A model generated the notes under the pieces. The model searched no databases, had not been told where the DNA came from, and saw nothing but the letters and a program-made list of their open reading frames with translations. Made by a program: the position numbers and the translations under genes. From the NCBI GenBank assembly GCA_022703055.1, contig JAKLEP010000001.1:410850-474849 (forward strand): a DNA stretch of 64,000 bases, in the 5' to 3' direction. Source of the DNA: Candidatus Omnitrophota bacterium (lineage in GTDB: Bacteria > Omnitrophota > Gorgyraeia > VGKH01). Of the stretch, positions 1,819 to 64,000 are shown in pieces (position 1 is the first letter of the stretch; each line of letters opens with the position of its first letter).

Positions 1819-2904
1819 ATGTCATTTTTGATATTTATAATCGTAATAAGTATTTTAATCGTAATCCACGAATTCGGTCATTTTATCGTGGCTAAATCTT
1901 TAGGAATTAGAGTGGAGAAGTTCGTCTTAGGATTTGGCCCGCAGCTTTTGACCAAAAAACGAAATGATACAGAATACGCAATAGCCCTTATTCCTTTTGG
2001 TGGATATGTCAAAATGTCGGGCGATACCCCGGATGAATTTAGAGGCAACAAATGGGAATATTTTTCTAGACCTCCGGGACAGCGGGCTAAAATAGTCTTA
2101 TTTGGTCCGGTGCTGAATTATGTTTTGGCTTTTGTATGTTTTTGCCTGGTATTTTTTATTGGCTTTCCAACACTTGGCACAGAAGTTGGAGAATTAATGG
2201 ACGGCTTCCCAGGTAAAGAAGCAGGGCTTCTGTCCGGAGATAAGATAACAAATATTGACGGCAAGAAAGTTAATAATTGGGAAGAGCTGCAGAAGATAGT
2301 ATTCAATAAAAAAGAAGGCAAGCTAGATTTAATTATTTTAAGGGCGAATAAGGAAATTAAAATATCTATTTTGCCCAAAAGAGATACAGTTAAGAACATA
2401 TTCGGGCAAGAAGAAAAGGTCAGCTTAATCGGGATAAAACCCAAAGAAGAATTTGTCCAGATAAAATACCCTTTAGGACGGTCAATCGTTGAGGGGGCCA
2501 AGAAGCTGTTGTCCATGACGGGTCTTACCTATAAAGCTTTATATATGATGCTAACTGGCGGCATGTCTTTCAAAGAATCTGTTACCGGTCCGCTGGGGAT
2601 GTTTTTCATTACCAGTAAGGCCATGGAAGAGGGGATAGCTTATTTAATTTATGTCATGGCAATATTAAGCATGAGCCTGGCGATATTTAACCTGATTCCT
2701 TTTCCTGTTCTTGACGGAGGACATCTATTTCTTTTGGCTTTGGAAAAGATACGCGGGAAAAGATTGTCGCAAAATATAGACGATTGGATTAATAGGGTAG
2801 GATTAGGGCTTATCGTTTTTATGGCGTTATTTGTTTTTTATAATGATTTGATTAGATACGGTATAATCGATAAAATCGTAGGTTTTGTAAGTAATATTAA
2901 GTAG
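1819..2904 (+). CDS. rseP: Site-2 (RIP) zinc metalloprotease RseP family
   Basis: HEFGHFIVAK (HExxH) in TM1, one PDZ-like segment, C-terminal NLIPFPVLDGGH motif. Confidence 0.9.
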   Translation: MSFLIFIIVISILIVIHEFGHFIVAKSLGIRVEKFVLGFGPQLLTKKRNDTEYAIALIPFGGYVKMSGDTPDEFRGNKWEYFSRPPGQRAKIVLFGPVLNYVLAFVCFCLVFFIGFPTLGTEVGELMDGFPGKEAGLLSGDKITNIDGKKVNNWEELQKIVFNKKEGKLDLIILRANKEIKISILPKRDTVKNIFGQEEKVSLIGIKPKEEFVQIKYPLGRSIVEGAKKLLSMTGLTYKALYMMLTGGMSFKESVTGPLGMFFITSKAMEEGIAYLIYVMAILSMSLAIFNLIPFPVLDGGHLFLLALEKIRGKRLSQNIDDWINRVGLGLIVFMALFVFYNDLIRYGIIDKIVGFVSNIK

Positions 2905-2912
2905 GGAGCAAT

Positions 2913-4307
2913 ATGGACCTAAAAATGAAGTCTATAAAACACGACACTATATGGCGTAAATTCTTATTGTCAGCTGTATTGATGTCGTTATTGCCAATAC
3001 TTCTTTTGCTTTACATAGTTTACTTTATTACCACTCCGCGCGAAGAAATTAACACTACTCAGATAAGATGGTTGATATTCTGGATCATGTGTTCTGCCAT
3101 GGCCGGGTTCTGGATCACTAAGAATATGGTGAGATCTTTTATCCAACTATCACAAGGTTTCAAGAAGGTGGCAAACGGCAACTACTCTGCAAAGCTAGAA
3201 AAAACCGACGAGGCAGGCGAGATCGATGAGCTTTCCAAAGCCTTCAATAAGATAACCTCAAGGTTGGAAGACAATATCCGCGAGCTGCAGAGATCCAAAA
3301 GGATGATACAAGATATCCTTTCCCGCGTGGGCAAGGCAGTCGCATCTTTTCAGGATATAGACAAATTCTTAGAGCTCATAGTTTTTACGACTATTGAAGC
3401 TATCGGAGCCAAAAACGGGAAATTGATGTTGACCGATGAAGAGCAAAAAGAATTAACTACCAAGATATCTTTCGGTCAAGAGCAGATACAGGATCATATA
3501 ATAAAATCAGGAGAAGGTCTGTTGGGCGCGGTTTTAAAAAAGGGTAGGCCGGCATTATTATCTAAAGCTGAAAGCGGATATGGGATGAGCGTCATCAGCG
3601 TTCCTCTCGTTTATAGCAATAGAATAAACGGAATTATTGTATTAAATGATAAAATAGATTCCAAAGATTTCTCCGAAGACGATTTATTTATTCTTAGCGA
3701 CTTGGCTAGCCACATTTCTATCGCTCTTGAGAATTATCGCTTAAGCCTGGATGTTGAGAAGACTTATATTGAAACTATCAACGCTCTTGCCATGGCGGTT
3801 GATGCCAGGGATCCTTACACAAGAGGCCATAGCAAGCGGGTCGGAGAATACTGCGAAAGAATCGCCAAAGAATTTGGTTTGGATAATGAAACTGTAAAGA
3901 TGCTTAAAGACGCTAGCATCGTACACGACATTGGCAAAATCGGAATACCCGATGAGATTTTACGTAAAACCACGCCATTAACCGAGGATGAAGTTAAGCT
4001 CATACAGCAGCATCCTTTGATAGGAGAAAATATTTTGCGGCCGATCAGATCCTTCGAGAAGTTGCGCCATTTGATTCGCTTGCATCATGAGAGGCTTAAT
4101 GGCTCGGGCTATCCAGAAGGCTTAGCTGGGAAAGACTTATCTTTGCCGCTTAAGATAATGATTGTGGCAGATGCCTTTGATGCCATGACTTCAAACAGGC
4201 CTTATCGGCAGGCAATGAGCACATTACAGGCAAAACAGGAATTACAGAAATATTCCGGCTCTCTCTTTGACAAAGAGGTAGTAGACAAGTTTGTTGAAAT
4301 AATCTAA
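2913..4307 (+). CDS. Membrane HAMP-GAF-HD-GYP domain protein (putative c-di-GMP phosphodiesterase)
   Basis: Two N-terminal TM segments, a HAMP-like coiled region and a GAF-like middle. HD-GYP signatures: HDIGKIGIP and HHERLNGSGYPEGL. Confidence 0.85.
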   Translation: MDLKMKSIKHDTIWRKFLLSAVLMSLLPILLLLYIVYFITTPREEINTTQIRWLIFWIMCSAMAGFWITKNMVRSFIQLSQGFKKVANGNYSAKLEKTDEAGEIDELSKAFNKITSRLEDNIRELQRSKRMIQDILSRVGKAVASFQDIDKFLELIVFTTIEAIGAKNGKLMLTDEEQKELTTKISFGQEQIQDHIIKSGEGLLGAVLKKGRPALLSKAESGYGMSVISVPLVYSNRINGIIVLNDKIDSKDFSEDDLFILSDLASHISIALENYRLSLDVEKTYIETINALAMAVDARDPYTRGHSKRVGEYCERIAKEFGLDNETVKMLKDASIVHDIGKIGIPDEILRKTTPLTEDEVKLIQQHPLIGENILRPIRSFEKLRHLIRLHHERLNGSGYPEGLAGKDLSLPLKIMIVADAFDAMTSNRPYRQAMSTLQAKQELQKYSGSLFDKEVVDKFVEII

Positions 4308-15215: not shown

Positions 15216-18066
<2,851 letters not shown>

Positions 18067-58475: not shown

Positions 58476-59057
58476 ATGAAAAAGATAATTTTAAATAGAA
58501 GATTTTTGATCGCAACGCTACTTTGCCTTGGCCTTCTTTCGGCTTCGGTTGATGCCTTTGCCCGCGATGAGCGAGGCCACGACCGGGGCTATAGCCATGG
58601 CAGAAGCGGCGGCAAGCGTGAAGTAGTAGTGGTAAACCATCATAGATATTATTATGATGACGGCAGGTTCTACCGGCCGGGTTGGTTTGGTTTCAGGATC
58701 TCTATCGGCACACCGCCGGTGGGGATAGTGATTTCCTATCTTCCGGCGCGGCATAAGACCTTGGTTATTGGGAACACAACATATTATTATTGCGACAATG
58801 TCTACTACAAGCCGGTTCCTCAGGGATATGTGGTGGTTCCTGCGCCGGTGGTGGCTTCCAATGCTCAGGTGATTGTGCAGCAGCCTCAAGGTGTGATTGG
58901 TGAGACCGTGGTTATCAACGTGCCTAATATTAACGGCAGTTATACCCCGGTTGTTTTGACTAAGAGCGGCAATGGTTATATCGGGCCGCAGGGTGAGTTT
59001 TATCCCGGCAATCCCACTGTGGAGCAGCTAAGAGCTTTATACGGAAAACAGGGATAG
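58476..59057 (+). CDS. Secreted hypothetical protein with Tyr-rich repeats
   Basis: Signal peptide (..VDAFA|RDE). Repeated HRYYYDDGRFYRP / TTYYYCDNVYYKP motifs. Part of the ECF operon by position. Confidence 0.55.
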   Translation: MKKIILNRRFLIATLLCLGLLSASVDAFARDERGHDRGYSHGRSGGKREVVVVNHHRYYYDDGRFYRPGWFGFRISIGTPPVGIVISYLPARHKTLVIGNTTYYYCDNVYYKPVPQGYVVVPAPVVASNAQVIVQQPQGVIGETVVINVPNINGSYTPVVLTKSGNGYIGPQGEFYPGNPTVEQLRALYGKQG

Positions 59058-59081
59058 AGGGATAGCTTAGGTTTTAATGAA

Positions 59082-59123
59082 GGGCCCCCGCCACTGAAAC
59101 AATGGCAGGGGCCCTCATTTTTT
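59082..59123 (+). terminator. Intrinsic terminator after the ECF module
   Basis: GGGCCCCCGCCA (59082-93) / TGGCAGGGGCCC (59103-14) pairs 11 of 12 positions. 9-nt loop, followed by TCATTTTTT. Confidence 0.8.
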
Positions 59124-59124
59124 A

Positions 59125-59153
59125 TTGCTAAATTCAATATCCTAAGTTACAAT
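59125..59153 (+). promoter_or_regulatory. Sigma-70-type promoter for pyk
   Basis: TTGCTA (59125-30), 17 nt, TACAAT (59148-53). Confidence 0.5.
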
Positions 59154-59195
59154 AGCCTTATCAATACCCGATAAGCGGTTTTTATATTACGAGAC

Positions 59196-60230
59196 ATGGT
59201 TAAAACTAAGATTATCTGTACTTTAGGCCCATCAAGTTCCACTTCTGCCGTCATCCGCAATATGACCCTGGCAGGAATGGATGTTGCGCGCCTGAATTTC
59301 TCCCACGGAAACCACGAGGCGCACAAAAATTACATCGATATCGTGCGTTCGATCAATAAAAAATACCACCGGGCCGTAAAGATATTGGGCGACCTGGAAG
59401 GAAACCGCATCCGCATCGGCAAATTAAAGAACCATAAGCCCCTGGTTTTAACCAGAAGAAAGATATTTTATCTTACCAATCGCAGTTTGGCAGGCAGCAA
59501 TAATATCGCCGGCTTTGACTATCAAGGTGAGCTTTCCGATATCAAAAAGAACCAGCTGATTTTTATCGATGACGGAAATATCTGCCTGAAAGTGAAAGCG
59601 GTAAGTAGCGATATGCTAAAGACCGAGGTCGTTTCCGGCGGCCTGCTAAAAGAGAATAAGGGGATAAATATCCCAGCAGCAAGGCTTAAATTTCACCGCA
59701 TAACCGAGAAGGATAAAATAGACTTGGCTTTCTGCATTAGGCATAAGGTTGATTATATCGCCCAGTCTTTTGTCAGGGATAAAAAGGATATTTTAAAGAT
59801 AAGGCAGATATTAGCGAATAGATTGCCGGGTGTTAAGATTATCGCCAAGATAGAAAACAAAGACGGCATAAGGAATATCGATGGGATTATTGATGTATCG
59901 GATGGCATAATGATTGCCCGCGGCGATATGGGGATATCGATTCCGATTTACCAGATACCGGTAGTCCAGAAAGAGATTATAGCTAAGTGCAATAAGAACG
60001 GAAAGTTTGTCATCACCGCTACTCAGATGCTTGAGAGCATGGTGGAAGAGAAGATTCCGCACCGCTCGGAGGTAACCGATGTCGCCAACGCGATTTTAGA
60101 CGGGAGCGATTTTGTCATGCTTTCGGCAGAGACTGCCGCCGGAAAATATCCGGTTGAGTCAGCCAGGATGATGAACCAGATAATCAAGTTTACGGAAGGC
60201 TCAAGGATTTATAAAAACAGGCCGGAATAA
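59196..60230 (+). CDS. pyk: Pyruvate kinase, A+B domains only (C-terminal domain absent)
   Basis: KIICTLGPSS, ARLNFSHG, MIARGDMGISIP, TATQMLESM and LSAETAAGKYP. Stops at 344 aa, roughly where the C domain normally starts. Confidence 0.85.
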   Translation: MVKTKIICTLGPSSSTSAVIRNMTLAGMDVARLNFSHGNHEAHKNYIDIVRSINKKYHRAVKILGDLEGNRIRIGKLKNHKPLVLTRRKIFYLTNRSLAGSNNIAGFDYQGELSDIKKNQLIFIDDGNICLKVKAVSSDMLKTEVVSGGLLKENKGINIPAARLKFHRITEKDKIDLAFCIRHKVDYIAQSFVRDKKDILKIRQILANRLPGVKIIAKIENKDGIRNIDGIIDVSDGIMIARGDMGISIPIYQIPVVQKEIIAKCNKNGKFVITATQMLESMVEEKIPHRSEVTDVANAILDGSDFVMLSAETAAGKYPVESARMMNQIIKFTEGSRIYKNRPE

Positions 60231-60244
60231 GCGGACTAGATGTT

Positions 60245-60325
60245 GGGCCCCTCACCTTTTTAGTATTCAAGAGGTTTTTAATTTGAGCTTTAAAGCACGT
60301 TGAACGGAGAAAAGGTGAGGGGCCC
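60245..60325. repeat. Perfect 16-bp GC-rich inverted repeat with a 49-nt spacer
   Basis: GGGCCCCTCACCTTTT (60245-60) and AAAAGGTGAGGGGCCC (60310-25), followed by CTTTGTTTT. Lies at the pyk/island junction. Confidence 0.8.
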
Positions 60326-60337
60326 CTTTGTTTTATC

Positions 60338-60365
60338 TTGACAAACTTTAGTCAAAAGTTATAAT
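60338..60365 (+). promoter_or_regulatory. Near-consensus sigma-70 promoter for the ORF6N gene
   Basis: TTGACA (60338-43), 16 nt, TATAAT (60360-65). Confidence 0.65.
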
Positions 60366-60395
60366 ATACCCGACAATTAAATTTCGCTTACCAAA

Positions 60396-60425
60396 CCTTC
60401 AGGAGAGAATTCCTGGAGGTTTTTT
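60396..60425 (+). promoter_or_regulatory. Leader hairpin + U-tract sequestering the SD of the ORF6N gene (copy A)
   Basis: CCTTCAGGA (60396-404) pairs with TCCTGGAGG (60411-19), one G-U pair. TTTTTT follows and ATG 60426 comes directly after. The GGAGG SD lies in the 3' arm. Confidence 0.6.
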
Positions 60426-60965
60426 ATGGTCAAAAAAGAATCAAAGACGGTAATCAAGGTTACGCCTGCCGGTATTATCGAGGACATGATTTATATAGTC
60501 CGCGGGCAAAAGGTAATGTTGGATAGTGACCTCTCTCAACTCTATGGCGTAAAAACAAAATCACTCAATCTCGCCGTCAAAAGAAATATTGACAGATTCC
60601 CGCATGATTTTATGTTCCAGTTAACTAAAGAAGAGTTTGCTAACTTGAGGTTTCAATTTGAAACCTCAAGTTGGGGCGGTATTAGATATCTGCCTTTTGT
60701 TTTTACTGAACAGGGCGTAGCTATGCTTTCTTCGGTTCTAAACAGCAAAAGAGCCATCCAGGTCAATATCGCCATAATGAGGACGTTTATCAAATTGCGC
60801 CGGATGATTTTGACTCACAAAGAAATGCGTCGCAAAATTGAGGAGATGGAGAAAAGATACGACAAGCAGTTTAAGGTTGTCTTTACCGCACTAAAGGAGT
60901 TATTGGACCATTCCAAAGAACCACAGAAGCCGAGGGCGAGAATTGGATTCCATCCTGACAAATAG
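60426..60965 (+). CDS. ORF6N (KilA-N-related) DNA-binding domain protein
   Basis: IVRGQKVMLDSDLSQLYGVKTKSLNLAVKRNIDRFPHDFMFQLT is the ORF6N hallmark. Coiled-coil C-terminus. Confidence 0.8.
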   Translation: MVKKESKTVIKVTPAGIIEDMIYIVRGQKVMLDSDLSQLYGVKTKSLNLAVKRNIDRFPHDFMFQLTKEEFANLRFQFETSSWGGIRYLPFVFTEQGVAMLSSVLNSKRAIQVNIAIMRTFIKLRRMILTHKEMRRKIEEMEKRYDKQFKVVFTALKELLDHSKEPQKPRARIGFHPDK

Positions 60966-60977
60966 AACTTTTTTCTT

Positions 60978-61263
60978 GCCCCCACACCAATTTATGTTTT
61001 ACGTCTATTTATTAAAAAGCAAAAAAGATAACAAGCTTTATCTCGGATCCACTAATGACTTGGAGCGAAGGCTAAAAGAACATAATGATGGCAAAGTTTT
61101 TTCTACAAAGCCAAGAAGGCCATTTGAATTAATATATTATGAGGCTTATAAGTCTGAAAAAGATGCCCGCTATCGAGAAAAGAACCTTAAATTGCGTTCT
61201 CGAGCATACACTCAGTTAAAAAAACGCATTCTTGGCAGTATTTCCTAAAATTGGTGTGGGGGC
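60978..61263. repeat. Perfect 16-bp inverted repeats bracketing the GIY-YIG ORF
   Basis: GCCCCCACACCAATTT (60978-93) abuts ATG 60994. AAATTGGTGTGGGGGC (61248-63) overlaps the last base of the stop codon (TAA 61246-48). Confidence 0.85.
60994..61248 (+). CDS. Small GIY-YIG nuclease-domain protein (84 aa)
   Basis: MFYVYLLKS ... LYLGSTNDLERRLKEHN ... Y..E...A..REK pattern. Start moved from 60943 because the track's start overlaps the ORF6N gene. Confidence 0.8.
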   Translation: MFYVYLLKSKKDNKLYLGSTNDLERRLKEHNDGKVFSTKPRRPFELIYYEAYKSEKDARYREKNLKLRSRAYTQLKKRILGSIS

Positions 61264-61333
61264 TTGCCAAAATCACCAAATAGGGTTATGATAATTCTAT
61301 TCGCTAAAGCTTTATAAACAGATAAGGAGGAAA

Positions 61334-61558
61334 ATGAAGGCTATCCAGATTTTACTTTGTTGCCTTGGCATAGTAATCGGTTTATTCGTATTCTTAAAGC
61401 CGGCCATAGCCATTGAAATGCAGAGGAAGTTTTACGCGATAATTAACTGGCGGCTTGAGCCCATCTCTATGGAGAAGGAAATCAAAAATACCAAGCTCAT
61501 GGGCTTTGGCTTATTTGTAGTCACCGTAGTGGCCATGGTCTATGCACTGGTCAAATAA
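61334..61558 (+). CDS. Small two-TM membrane protein
   Basis: AAGGAGG RBS and two hydrophobic helices. No family recognised. Confidence 0.45.
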   Translation: MKAIQILLCCLGIVIGLFVFLKPAIAIEMQRKFYAIINWRLEPISMEKEIKNTKLMGFGLFVVTVVAMVYALVK

Positions 61559-61583
61559 TCAAGAAGCAATGCTTTCGTAGCTC

Positions 61584-61612
61584 TTGTAAAAAGAGTGAGT
61601 TAGAGTTATCAT
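61584..61612 (+). promoter_or_regulatory. Candidate sigma-70 promoter for the HsdR-like gene
   Basis: TTGTAA (61584-89), 17 nt, TATCAT (61607-12). Context cTTGxxAa...agtTATxATata resembles the ORF6N promoter. Confidence 0.45.
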
Positions 61613-61680
61613 ATAGCTTAAAGTAGCACCTTACATTATGAATCCAATTAAAATTACAGACTATTAACGCCAATCGCTTG

Positions 61681-61710
61681 CCTCCAGGAAGATAAAGCTG
61701 GAGGTTTTTT
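61681..61710 (+). promoter_or_regulatory. Leader hairpin + U-tract (copy B), upstream of the HsdR-like gene
   Basis: CCTCCAG (61681-87) / CTGGAGG (61698-704) followed by TTTTTT. Shares TCGCTT.CC...CAGGA.A.AA...CTGGAGGTTTTTTA(A)TGGT with copy A. Confidence 0.55.
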
Positions 61711-61741
61711 AATGGTTTAACTAAATTTAAATTCGTAAATT

Positions 61742-64000
61742 ATGGAAAAAGAAGCAAAAGCAAGAATAAAAATTAATAAACTTCTAGAAGAGTCTGGTTG
61801 GCGTTTTTTTGATACGCCAGAGGGCAAAGCCAATGTAAAACTTGAGAGCAACGTAAGGCTTGAAGACCTAGGCGAAAACTTCGAAAAAACTACGCAGGGA
61901 TTTATTGATTACCTTTTATTAGATGAAAGTAGTTTTCCTATTTGTGTTCTTGAGGCAAAATCAGAGGAAAAGGATCCATTAATTGGTAAAGAAAAAGCTA
62001 GGAGATATGCTAATTCACAGAATGTTCGCTATATTATCTTATCAAATGGCAATATTCATTATTTTTGGGATAAGCAATTAGGCAACCCGACAAGAATTTC
62101 ACGCTTTCCGCCATTACAGAGTTTTAAAAGTCACAAGAATTTCTTGCCAGACACAAATAAGTTAATCCAAGAACAAGTAAACGATGATTACGTTGTGCTT
62201 ACACAGAATCCACTGTATAAGCAGGATCCTCGGTGGAAAGATGAAGCTCAACGTGAAGCTTTTATTAAAGAAACTGGGCTTAAATTTTTGCGGGCTTATC
62301 AATTAAGGGCAGTACAAACTATTCAAAGCGCAGTCTCAAAAGGAAAAAATAGATTTTTGTTTGAGATGGCAACTGGTACTGGGAAGACTCTAGTTGCCGG
62401 TGCAATCATTAAACTTTACCTTAAAACTAATAATGCCCGTAGAGTACTTTTTTTAGTAGATCGTCTTGAACTCGAGACTCAGGCACTGAAAGCATTCAAA
62501 GACTATCTTAAGCCAGATTATTTTACAGTAATTTTCAAGGAAAATAGAGACGATTGGCAAAAGGCAGATATTGTTATTACCACTGTCCAGAGCATCTCAC
62601 ACGATAATAAATATCTTAAGCTTTTCTCGCCAACCGACTTTGATTTAGTCATCTCAGATGAAGCCCATAGGTCAATTTCAGGAAATAGCCGCCTCATCTT
62701 TGAATATTTTATCAGTGCAAAACTAGGCCTTACCGCGACTCCGAAGGATTATTTAAAAAATATTGATGAAAAAAAGCTAGCCGCAACCGATCCTCGGGAA
62801 TTAGAAAAACGTATCTTATTTTCTACCTACAAAACTTTTGGCTGTGAAAGTGGAGTTCCTACGTTTAGATATACCTTACCAGATGGTGTAAAAGATGGCT
62901 ATTTAGTTAATCCAAAAGCAATCGACTGCCGAACCGAAATAACAACACAGCTTCTTTCAGATAAAGGATATGCCGTTCAAGTACAAACCGAGGAAGGTCA
63001 AGAAGATGAAATAATTTATAAACAAAAAGATTTTGAGCGAAACTTTTTTTCAGAAAAGACCAATATAGAATTCGTGAAGACATTTATGGAAAATGCAGCA
63101 AAAGATCCTATCTCTGGTGAAATTGGAAAAAGTATTGTGTTTTGCGTAAGCCGAAAACATGCATCTAAAATCACTGATATTCTTAACGACTTTGCACTTA
63201 AGATGTTCCCTGGGAAGTATAACTCTGATTTCGCAGTCCAGATAACTTCTGATATTGGTAAATCACAGCAGATGTCGATTAGTTTCGCCAATAATAACCT
63301 TAATGGTCATACTAGTTTTTTCCCAGGCTATAAATCCAGCAAAACCAGAGTCTGCGTAACTGTAGGGATGATGACAACAGGCTATGATTGTCTTGATATA
63401 CTTAATCTTTGTTTAATGCGGCCGATCTTTTCTCCAACCGACTTTGTTCAAATTAAAGGAAGAGGAACGCGAAAATTTACCTTTAGCTATAAAGAAAGGC
63501 AGTTTGATAAAGAAGAAGTAGTCGAGAAAGAAAAAGAAAATTTTAAACTTTTTGATTTCTTTGCTAATTGTGAATATTTTGAGGAGAAATATCCTTACGA
63601 TCAAGTTATTAAGTTGCCACCCACAAAGAAAGGAACCGGGGGAGACGGACCACCACCGCCTTCACCAGTTGTTACCGAAATAGATGTTCCGGATCCTCTT
63701 AAGATGATGGAAGTAATGTCTTTCGAAGGCGATATTATGCGCGTGGACCGTGAGCTTTATATGAATAAATTTGAATCAAAAGTAAAAGAAACCTATGAAA
63801 AAACTCCAGAATTTAAAGAAGCCGTTGATAGTGGTAATTACGAAGAAATGGAGCAGTTTATTAAAGCTCATGTTTTTAATAAGCCAAAGGAATATTTTAA
63901 TCTTGAAGCAATACGACAGGGATATCATGCAGACCGTCGCTTAGGACTTTGGGAAATTTTGGATAAAATTTTTGGGAAGATTCATCGTTTTAAGACTAAA
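61742..64000 (+). CDS. hsdR: Type I restriction enzyme R-subunit-like nuclease-helicase (HsdR/EcoEI-like), 3'-truncated by the window; absent from the ORF track
   Basis: I translated 753 uninterrupted codons from ATG 61742 to the window end. N-terminus EAKARIKINKLLEESGWRF. PD-(D/E)XK motif IDYLLLD...VLEAKSEE. SF2 motifs EMATGTGKT (I), ISDEAHRS (II), LGLTATP (III) and QIKGRGTR (VI). A Gly/Pro linker (GTGGDGPPPPSP) is followed by a helical C-terminal region. Confidence 0.85.
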   Translation, partial: MEKEAKARIKINKLLEESGWRFFDTPEGKANVKLESNVRLEDLGENFEKTTQGFIDYLLLDESSFPICVLEAKSEEKDPLIGKEKARRYANSQNVRYIILSNGNIHYFWDKQLGNPTRISRFPPLQSFKSHKNFLPDTNKLIQEQVNDDYVVLTQNPLYKQDPRWKDEAQREAFIKETGLKFLRAYQLRAVQTIQSAVSKGKNRFLFEMATGTGKTLVAGAIIKLYLKTNNARRVLFLVDRLELETQALKAFKDYLKPDYFTVIFKENRDDWQKADIVITTVQSISHDNKYLKLFSPTDFDLVISDEAHRSISGNSRLIFEYFISAKLGLTATPKDYLKNIDEKKLAATDPRELEKRILFSTYKTFGCESGVPTFRYTLPDGVKDGYLVNPKAIDCRTEITTQLLSDKGYAVQVQTEEGQEDEIIYKQKDFERNFFSEKTNIEFVKTFMENAAKDPISGEIGKSIVFCVSRKHASKITDILNDFALKMFPGKYNSDFAVQITSDIGKSQQMSISFANNNLNGHTSFFPGYKSSKTRVCVTVGMMTTGYDCLDILNLCLMRPIFSPTDFVQIKGRGTRKFTFSYKERQFDKEEVVEKEKENFKLFDFFANCEYFEEKYPYDQVIKLPPTKKGTGGDGPPPPSPVVTEIDVPDPLKMMEVMSFEGDIMRVDRELYMNKFESKVKETYEKTPEFKEAVDSGNYEEMEQFIKAHVFNKPKEYFNLEAIRQGYHADRRLGLWEILDKIFGKIHRFKTK

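Follow-up and report, generated by a model that had tools for sequence, protein, structure and literature searches.

Small GIY-YIG proteins of the Ssn type cut single-stranded DNA (ssDNA) beside cognate hairpin repeats that flank their own genes, and they have been likened to RAYTs/REP and to IS200/IS605 (Chenal et al. 2025, PMC11893778). Type IMS restriction-modification systems consist of a fused modification-specificity (M-S) protein and a separate HsdR, and a single recognition domain is allowed (Roberts et al. 2012, PMC3510504). One representative of the PADLOC group PDC-S05, of the RhuM type, reduced the plating of T7 and T5 on E. coli ~1000-fold. Genes comparable to each of these are located at the end of a 64,000-nucleotide (nt) stretch of DNA from a Candidatus Omnitrophota bacterium, which was analysed at its full length and is referred to here as the window. 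Downstream of the pyruvate kinase gene pyk, four genes, all on the + strand, encode an ORF6N protein, a GIY-YIG nuclease, a protein of 74 amino acids (aa) and an HsdR-like restriction subunit (Table 1).

A preliminary description of the window interpreted these genes as an island that follows a truncated pyk, is marked at its left edge by a GC-rich inverted repeat and may act as one unit. We consider it likely that the region is made up of four independent components and is no single system, with an intact pyk and a terminator-like repeat after it. The island itself was ordinary, a type I-like module and cargo beside a conserved gene, and it is the split-hairpin GIY-YIG family and a palindrome inside the ORF6N gene that deserve follow-up. 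The functional labels given earlier to the four proteins were borne out by Pfam, PADLOC and motif evidence, with the small protein of two hydrophobic segments remaining without a family.

Composition and gene order

Sequence beyond the window was taken from the 500-kb JGI contig Ga0116241_10000031 (L001), which was found by exact-protein look-up and had 0 mismatches to the window across the 12,667 bases in common; window-equivalent coordinates are L001 coordinates + 51333. GC content after 61000 was 0.35-0.37 compared with 0.419 +/- 0.023 elsewhere, which agrees with the AT-richness noted by eye. The block 60966-68230 (window-equivalent) had a GC content of 0.346 and a tetranucleotide distance from the first 60 kb of 0.303, where same-size chunks gave 0.151 +/- 0.012 and a maximum of 0.176. 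The shift in composition occurred only after ORF6N. GC content at third codon positions (GC3) was 0.47-0.57 in the native core (ECF sigma through pyk, the fn3 gene and the DEAD helicase gene) and native-like in ORF6N (0.489) and the 74-aa membrane protein gene (0.573), while foreign values were found for GIY-YIG (0.318), hsdR (0.282), the fused hsdM-hsdS gene (0.289) and the cargo genes of 57 aa (0.224), 287 aa (0.174) and 202 aa (0.281). As GC3 splits the genes sharply into native and foreign, composition speaks for two distinct insertions among native genes, a 304-bp GIY-YIG cassette and a block of ~6.5 kb which starts somewhere between 61560 and 61740. The earlier idea of an accessory island held for the compositionally foreign block with defence-type genes from 60966 onwards and was not supported for ORF6N and the membrane protein gene, which are native in composition.

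Gene order pointed in a similar direction for ORF6N. Two related Omnitrophota genomes (L097 and L099) had orthologues with 74% identity behind the RecJ-L28 gene run that is also found here, and L099 additionally shared the upstream genes for ECF sigma, anti-sigma and LTXXQ proteins. The genes 3' of ORF6N differed, with surface proteins in L097/L098 and SIMPL, AbiEii with a helix-turn-helix (HTH) protein, DUF6788, a nucleotidyltransferase, HNH, a MazG-like protein and a Schlafen-type helicase in L099/L100. Judged by order and composition, ORF6N can be regarded as a native syntenic gene that in this lineage flanks, on the upstream side, a variable spot rich in defence genes. No tRNA or integrase was found in searches of the island borders. 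The spacers after pyk (195, 28, 85 and 183 nt) were long, as described earlier, against a median of 7 nt upstream, yet 8 of the 59 upstream gaps also reached at least 150 nt.

The GIY-YIG cassette and its split hairpin

The inverted repeat noted around the GIY-YIG gene (CCCCCACACCAA / TTGGTGTGGGGG) was confirmed, and its 25-nt arms exactly abut the start and stop codons. Written as arms the hairpin is TTTACCCCCACACCAA-loop-TTGGTGTGGGGGTAAA. The repeat had two matches in the window compared with 0.02 expected, and no further copies were present in 71.5 kb of this genome. The GIY-YIG domain covered residues 1-71 of 84 with no further domain in Pfam, and the ATG was not preceded by a ribosome-binding site (RBS). 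A TTG-extended gene model of 101 aa was ruled out, as homologues begin at the ATG after the left arm.

A metagenome scan for homologues yielded 80 loci with 65-82% amino-acid identity. Both arms were present within 70 nt of the coding sequence (CDS) with at most 3 substitutions in 55 of these loci, and the outer flanks were unrelated. Across 53 distinct arm pairs, 82% of cells were paired as opposed to 39-46% when the arms were slid, and changes on both sides were seen in 17 of 23 pairs, for example CCCCCGCACC/GGTGCGGGGG and ATCCCC/GGGGAT. Choosing loci by a 12-mer biases the core of the repeat; the flanking pairs and the compensatory changes are free of that bias. In ~17 other loci the arms were also found close to the gene without enclosing it, either as solo hairpins of 28-38 nt or around unrelated inserts of 30-80 nt (Table 1), and these gene-less brackets resemble reduced or emptied forms of the element. 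One cassette was 98.7% identical at two loci with unrelated upstream flanks, although at one of these loci the contig stops at the CDS.

A more distant homologue with 51% identity (L033) had no bracket, indicating that the repeat is specific to a subfamily. Homologues on Shinella and Azospirillum plasmids (37-38% identical) were flanked by canonical Ssn-related motifs (SRMs). A scan with the SRM consensus HGTCWYN(0-2)YYVSBRHN(0-5)WNVSBRGN(0-2)RNCYNB returned no match in the window, 2 matches in the 270,599 nt of the 80 loci and 4 in each of the Shinella and Azospirillum controls. On the Azospirillum lipoferum plasmid AZO_p3 (L190), an Ssn-type gene of canonical form (1379-1887), with two SRM hairpins per side, is inserted into an Fe-S cluster operon, where it separates sufB from sufC. 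Viral contigs of IMG/VR contained no cassette, solo hairpin or relative of the protein, and a viral origin of the cassette was rejected on the strength of this search.

The cassette would thus be a self-contained unit of 304 bp that was inserted between ORF6N and the native membrane protein gene, with its gene inside the halves of a cognate hairpin. By analogy with Ssn (PMC11893778), the GIY-YIG protein would recognise its own hairpin in ssDNA and nick beside it.

A palindrome within the ORF6N coding sequence

The perfect 15 + 1 + 15 palindrome inside ORF6N was the longest short-loop palindrome of the window. The same protein position was palindromic in 38 distinct homologue sequences that differed from one another, originating from several phyla, Omnitrophota among them, from a Bacteroides conjugative transposon, from plasmids of Legionella and Sulfuricurvum and from numerous viral contigs (L097, L192, L197-L279). 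Examples include CTTGAGGTCACAA-T-TTGTGACCTCAAG and GGGGTATCACA-AAA-TGTGATACCCC, and in one ORF6N group (AACTGGTCACAA-A-TTGTGACCAGTT) the palindrome lay in a different reading frame. Pairing was observed in 82.8% of cells over the 38 sequences compared with 27-41% when the partner was slid, and both sides had changed in 11 of 15 pairs. The centres were picked by maximal symmetry in a 75-nt stretch; nonetheless they coincide in the protein alignment.

Watson-Crick pairs out of 15 averaged 12.2 in the observed sequences, while resampling of synonymous codons gave 6.1-6.2 with a maximum of 7.1, and none of 1000 resamplings reached the observed value. Because the observed pairs exceed this expectation, the palindrome is maintained beyond the need of the protein sequence. 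The encoded residues co-varied by complementarity (S with V, F with E, C with G), and in the AlphaFold model the segment was mostly loop of lower confidence. Codon choice and co-varying amino acids together thus keep a hidden constraint in this gene. Our best guess is that the palindrome is a binding site for a dimeric ORF6N protein or a structured ssDNA or RNA signal, and a literature search returned no description of it or of its sequences. If this is true, a cis element within a common anti-repressor and candidate defence gene would bear on the control of such genes. The encoded palindrome motif was tandemly duplicated in L099, L200 and L277. The sole other perfect short-loop palindrome in the window with a stem of at least 11 bp was located at 15318-15343 (AGAGAATTTATC-AC-GATAAATTCTCT).

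The ORF6N protein matched the PADLOC PDC-S05 models over its full length (PDLC04856 4.8e-61, PDLC04869 1e-58 and PDLC04849 5.4e-40) as well as the anti-repressor family PHROG 4792 (5.5e-30), and the family is very large and strongly conserved over phyla. A homologue in a Planctomycete was located between a ParE toxin gene and the gene for a 927-aa N6_N4 methyltransferase with a ResIII protein, that of the Bacteroides conjugative transposon followed two integrases and preceded ArdA, and others were found on Sulfuricurvum and Legionella plasmids and in 92 viral contigs. The AlphaFold model (pLDDT 78.5) placed a winged-helix-like domain at the N-terminus, with long helices behind it (108-161) that would be compatible with dimerisation; a fold search with the model gave a weak winged-helix-like resemblance (Ski/Dachshund, E = 0.13). 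ORF6N is accordingly proposed to act as a dimeric, winged-helix-like DNA-binding protein of the anti-repressor or PDC-S05 kind, which would be expressed from its own promoter behind an RBS-sequestering leader hairpin.

Hairpins, promoters and leaders

The 16-bp inverted repeat described after pyk exists as a perfect 16-mer pair (60245-60260 / 60310-60325) and folds into a hairpin of -41.9 kcal/mol (z = -4.95) that is followed by a U-rich run. A hairpin of similar style was found at 59081-59115, 3' of the DUF6515 gene. In L099, which has a gene other than pyk at this upstream position, a homologous GC-rich hairpin with a compensatory change was located 5' of the ORF6N promoter. We read the hairpin as a terminator or insulator and not as the end of an island; its retention with the ORF6N promoter in L099 and the change of composition only after ORF6N speak against the left edge proposed before. 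A scan of 59000-64000 against Rfam gave no credible match.

The near-consensus promoters reported for the spacers were present (Table 1), and that of ORF6N was also found with the orthologues in L099 and L097. Promoter and 5' leader were kept in all three orthologues, in which the stem holding the RBS was invariant and the loop variable. The leader hairpins of ORF6N and hsdR were alike, as noted earlier, with a Smith-Waterman score of 33; when real windows and shuffles were each scored against the first (ORF6N) leader, the best score was 25 among the 600 real windows and 29 among the 2000 shuffles. The 13-mer shared by the leaders (CTGGAGGTTTTTT) was found in the window only at these two sites. 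The hairpin at 61681-61711 copies the ORF6N leader as far as ATGGT and then reads ATG GTT TAA, so that a mini-ORF (61712-61720) follows the GGAGG-T6 hairpin in frame with the hsdR start 21 nt downstream. An RBS proper to hsdR is absent. Two readings of the second leader were considered: it may be what is left of another ORF6N-type 5' end where the insertion took place, or it may serve as a terminator plus ribosome-loading site for hsdR.

The restriction-modification module and its cargo

The HsdR-like protein (838 aa in the full contig) matched ResIII (2e-38, or 2.6e-38 with the full gene), PADLOC REase_I (1e-63) and the type I R structure PDB 3h1t (3.5e-33). Its motifs included D56, E71-A-K73, Q93xxxY, ATGTGKT at 210, DEAH at 306, TATP at 331 and QIKGRGTR at 570. 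The absence of hsdM and hsdS noted earlier was an effect of the window end, as in the full contig only 2 nt separate the stop codon of hsdR from a fused hsdM-hsdS gene. The fused protein contained N6_Mtase (7.9e-45) and one Methylase_S domain (1.9e-16, residues 463-618), matched PADLOC MTase_I (6e-85) and Specificity_I (2e-18), and in its HsdM part matched the PDB entries for HsdM (5ybb, 3.7e-35) and EcoKI M (1e-25), with the motifs DPACGTAGF at 178 and NPPF at 271. All catalytic motifs of R and M were intact.

Homologues of hsdR of ~838 aa with 60-78% identity occurred in Thermoproteota, Syntrophales, Latescibacteria, Anaerolineae, Actinobacteria and candidate-phyla bacteria. In each of three contexts read (Thermoproteota, Syntrophales and another contig) an N6_Mtase gene lay directly 3', and in the two complete contexts it was a fusion of N6_Mtase and Methylase_S of 833-836 aa. 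The fused M-S of this locus was 48-54% identical to the fusions after hsdR homologues in three unrelated contigs and aligned over the methyltransferase and the first recognition domain, with its last helix matching both conserved helices of the two-domain relatives. In its gene arrangement the module matches the Type IMS architecture. The fused M-S would dimerise to (M·S)2, an M2S-equivalent that would read and methylate a symmetric bipartite site, by inference from the Type IMS proposal of Roberts et al. (2012) and from general knowledge of half-size S subunits, and HsdR, combining nuclease and ATP-driven translocase, would be recruited by M·S to unmodified DNA. This two-gene, type I-like module would form the core of a horizontally acquired block from ~61600 to ~68200, with the unrelated 57-, 287- and 202-aa genes behind it as cargo.

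The cargo genes are followed by the genes for an fn3 protein and a high-GC DEAD-box helicase. The 57-aa and 287-aa genes (L001 14958-15998, window-equivalent 66291-67331) were 3 nt apart, had the lowest GC3 of the region and may form a toxin-antitoxin-like pair. The 287-aa protein matched nothing in Pfam or PDB and its N-terminus was PIN-like by eye only; a PIN-PilZ reading was rejected, the C-terminal PilZ-like match to TIGR02266 being weak (7e-5) and under the cut-off. The 202-aa protein had no informative match in profile searches. A 33-nt direct repeat (TAGGGACNTTCCCCNAGTTGAACTTGAGGG, 91% identical) brackets the 202-aa gene at L001 16036-16068 / 16724-16756 (window-equivalent 67369-67401 / 68057-68089), at the right end of the low-GC block, with no copy in the 64-kb window. 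It may be the mark of a further small insertion or of the island border.

Pyruvate kinase and its upstream neighbourhood

The pyk product matched Pfam PK (Table 1) and TIGR01064 above its cut-off, and its GC3 (0.551) was native. The PK_C domain, the mark of full-length (allosteric) pyruvate kinase, was absent according to Pfam, and this absence was lineage-wide. A genome scan with pyk returned mostly Candidatus Omnitrophota metagenome-assembled genomes (MAGs) with identities of at most 65%. In ~60 relatives from Omnitrophota and neighbouring phyla with 53-65% identity the frame ends 0-25 codons past the barrel domain, and long forms, with ~240 codons more, were mostly Clostridia/Ruminococcus matches of ~45% identity. 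Because ~60 relatives stop at the same point, the short pyk can be taken as an intact enzyme and a lineage trait, and the truncation proposed before was not upheld. The short form without PK_C was the rule across Omnitrophota and also in MAGs labelled Elusimicrobia, Planctomycetes and Verrucomicrobia (L011-L073).

A DEAD-box helicase gene (63-80% identical) was located immediately 5' of pyk in related Omnitrophota (L014, L042, L052 and L059). A simple insertion between pyk and this helicase gene was ruled out, as the helicase lies ~9 kb 3' of pyk here, and its upstream position in the relatives indicates that the gene order at this locus was rearranged beyond mere interruption.

The 74-aa membrane protein and other features

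The 74-aa protein had no family in Pfam, PADLOC or PHROG. A word-based search found the protein alone; full HMMER recovered 157 distant cluster representatives, by which an orphan status was ruled out. Directly 3' of one homologue, in L193, a group II intron reverse transcriptase (RVT_1 + GIIM) was encoded at 2236-3525. Three independent assemblies (L006/L094, L007 and L008) stop within 15 nt of one another at 61387-61401, inside the 74-aa gene, which suggests a strain-level branch point or a variant downstream of it.

Table 1. Positions of features at the locus and of gene-less bracket arms at other loci
Feature	Position	Strand	Remarks
pyk, complete short form, 344 aa, barrel domain only	59196..60230	+	Pfam PK 1e-112; context gene outside island
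Terminator-like long hairpin	60245..60325	+	16-17 bp GC-rich outer stem, U-rich run 3'
Sigma-70 consensus promoter of ORF6N, TTGACA-16-TATAAT	60338..60365	+	12/12 matches
ORF6N leader hairpin	60393..60425	+	GGAGG RBS in 3' arm, T6 run to ATG
ORF6N protein, 179 aa	60426..60965	+	Pfam ORF6N 1.3e-35
Perfect palindrome of 31 nt in ORF6N CDS	60642..60672		codons 73-83
GIY-YIG bracket, left arm	60969..60993		core GCCCCCACACCAATTT
GIY-YIG nuclease, 84 aa, single domain, putatively Ssn-like	60994..61248	+	Pfam GIY-YIG 5.3e-19; low-GC insertion (predicted)
GIY-YIG bracket, right arm	61248..61272		AAATTGGTGTGGGGGC
Promoter-like site TTGCCA-17-TATGAT, 5' of membrane protein gene	61264..61292	+	10/12, consensus match only
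74-aa protein, two hydrophobic segments	61334..61558	+	native composition
Paralogous ORF6N leader hairpin with GGAGG-T6, then mini-ORF ATG GTT TAA	61681..61720	+	21 nt 5' of hsdR ATG
HsdR-like restriction subunit	61742..64000	+	first 753 of 838 codons in window; PD-(D/E)xK nuclease and SF2 translocase domains
Fused hsdM-hsdS, 659 aa	64261-66240 (window-equivalent)		full hsdR ends 64258
Gene-less arms, L115	3501-3529		
Gene-less arms, L116	1258-1285		
Gene-less arms, L117	2509-2537		
Gene-less arms, L130	2647-2750		
Gene-less arms, L131	2779-2882 and 2895-3001		
Gene-less arms, L122	1500-1606		
Gene-less arms, L124	1627-1733		

Alternative explanations

Several observations weigh against a composite of independent parts. 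The copy of the ORF6N leader lies immediately 5' of hsdR and shared regulation is possible, homologues of ORF6N recurred in the vicinity of genes for defence or restriction-modification, and in PADLOC the family has the status of a defence candidate, so a loose functional link to the downstream genes is possible. The GIY-YIG protein was about as similar to UPF0213 proteins (B. subtilis YazA, 49% over 56 aa; BH0048, 4e-8) as to the SRM-flanked homologues. No empty-site genome was found, the exact-protein look-ups with pyk, ORF6N and the membrane protein having returned the same population at 99.9-100% identity; since all contigs with the exact proteins were of this population, the insertion boundaries are drawn from composition and distant synteny only. 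A 58%-identical homologue of the membrane protein was encoded ~800 nt 3' of an N-terminally truncated ORF6N in L192-194, and two other homologues were found in unrelated contexts. This pattern fits an old adjacency of ORF6N and the membrane protein gene in the lineage, presumably split later by the GIY-YIG insertion, and does not imply a functional pair.

A single defence system with shared leader hairpins, built from all four proteins (ORF6N, GIY-YIG, membrane and HsdR-like), is extremely improbable on this evidence and was largely refuted. The adjacency and common orientation of the genes, the similar leaders and the PDC-S05 matches would favour such a system, but co-occurrence was lacking from every side: ORF6N, the membrane protein, hsdR and hsdMS were absent from all 80 GIY-YIG loci, ORF6N, GIY-YIG and the membrane protein were absent upstream in the three hsdR contexts, and the ORF6N and membrane protein contexts were no different. 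The codon composition of the four genes is mixed, and hsdR has its own M·S partner downstream. Both outcomes that the preliminary description named as refuting it were found in part: the continuation of the contig proved to be an hsdR-hsdM-hsdS arrangement, M and S being present as a fusion, with the other genes missing beside homologous R and M·S pairs, and conserved synteny extended to ORF6N with its promoter and leader while the genes downstream of it differed. A separate reading, in which ORF6N is a stand-alone defence or regulatory gene of the PDC-S05 kind that, for instance, senses infection or controls the neighbouring island, has more in its favour and yet seems unlikely on balance. 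Such a role alongside defence would explain the retention of the gene at the border of a variable spot, and it is in keeping with the PDC-S05 matches (5e-61 to 5e-40), the ~1000-fold effect of the RhuM-type member on T7 and T5, the leader copy 5' of hsdR and the AbiE, HNH, Schlafen-type helicase and 927-aa methyltransferase/ResIII neighbours of relatives. The assayed protein, however, has a different domain, the downstream genes in L097 encode surface proteins and no defence functions, and proteins of this family, labelled 'anti-repressor', are also frequent on plasmids and conjugative transposons and in viral contigs.

The bracket could instead act in the mRNA, with the 5' and 3' arms paired over a long range in a stem that would mask the start codon of GIY-YIG and control translation or stability. 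We regard this as a doubtful alternative: the position of the arms at the start and stop codons, their pairing in the predicted fold and the lack of an RBS are what it would require, whereas the occurrence of the same arms without the gene, as short hairpins or around short inserts, is not, the hairpins that flank relatives of the protein are ssDNA nuclease sites, and the fold of the whole cassette was no better than that of shuffled sequences (z = -1.5). An origin of the HsdR-like protein in another helicase-nuclease system (type ISP/IIG-like, MADS, or a DISARM or BREX accessory) is highly unlikely. Its scores were below the curated cut-offs (EcoAI R, 224-227 vs 550 bits; MAD2, 110 vs 720 bits) and PADLOC gave weaker matches to type IV enzymes, PbeA and DrmD, but the best matches of R, M and S in PADLOC and of R and M in PDB were all to type I proteins, the conserved cassette comprises two genes only, and a profile search found no other MADS, DISARM or BREX genes. 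The reading preferred here remains that of independent parts, with the ORF6N gene native and the GIY-YIG cassette and the type I-like block inserted separately.

Comparison with known systems

The restriction-modification module resembles Type IMS in its separate R with PD-(D/E)xK and SF2 motifs, in the adjacency of the R and M-S genes and in an M part with a target recognition domain of type I and then a coiled-coil helix behind it. Its relatives differ in having two recognition domains (833-836 aa) where the protein of this locus has one (659 aa). The nearest R subunits are those of the EcoAI (type IB) family; the R subunit described here scored below the curated cut-off of EcoAI/FtnUII (NF046051; 5e-67) and is thus related without being a member, and the module is known from its genes alone. 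The analysis shows that natural Type IMS modules of R and fused M·S are widespread and move between phyla.

ORF6N resembles the PDC-S05 and anti-repressor proteins in its full-length match and in adjoining a restriction-modification module. It differs in being syntenic and native in composition, the assayed PDC-S05 member had a RhuM domain, and the internal palindrome and the leader hairpin were in no description of these proteins that we found.

The cassette shares with RAYTs/REP and IS200/IS605 a nuclease gene inside inverted hairpin-forming repeats that are also found without the gene. It differs in the fold of the nuclease, which is GIY-YIG as opposed to HUH/Y1, and in that no dispersal of the repeat was seen in this genome; transposition is hypothetical here. 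A speculative and rather improbable extension would make the cassette a minimal autonomous hairpin element, whose nuclease excises or copies the loop of its own hairpin, the arms a general cassette carrier, since the same arms bracket unrelated short inserts, and the ORF6N palindrome a cis-acting site. If this were true, pairing of the arms in ssDNA would enable excision or copying of the loop by the nuclease, as a GIY-YIG counterpart of the 'peel and paste' of IS200/IS605, and the palindrome would be a self-operator or an ssDNA or RNA hairpin that constrains the protein sequence of a widespread mobile-element and defence-island gene.

Ssn is the closest known system to the GIY-YIG cassette, which is predicted to work like an Ssn element with a putative membership in the same clade (cd10448). 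Both have a single-domain GIY-YIG protein of fewer than 150 aa, inverted hairpin-forming repeats within ~0-30 nt on both sides and extra hairpins near many loci. The bracket sequence of the cassette is unrelated to the SRM consensus, and each flank holds half of a hairpin so that the gene lies in the loop of one split hairpin, whereas Ssn genes lie between two complete hairpins. The cassette and its relatives would therefore represent a large natural Ssn-like family that has a different geometry, gene-less brackets and a novel cognate hairpin without relation to the motif published for Ssn. Such a family would widen the choice of enzyme and site pairs for ssDNA tools and would offer a simpler element for the 'NTS-ssnA-NTS mobile?' question raised by Ssn.

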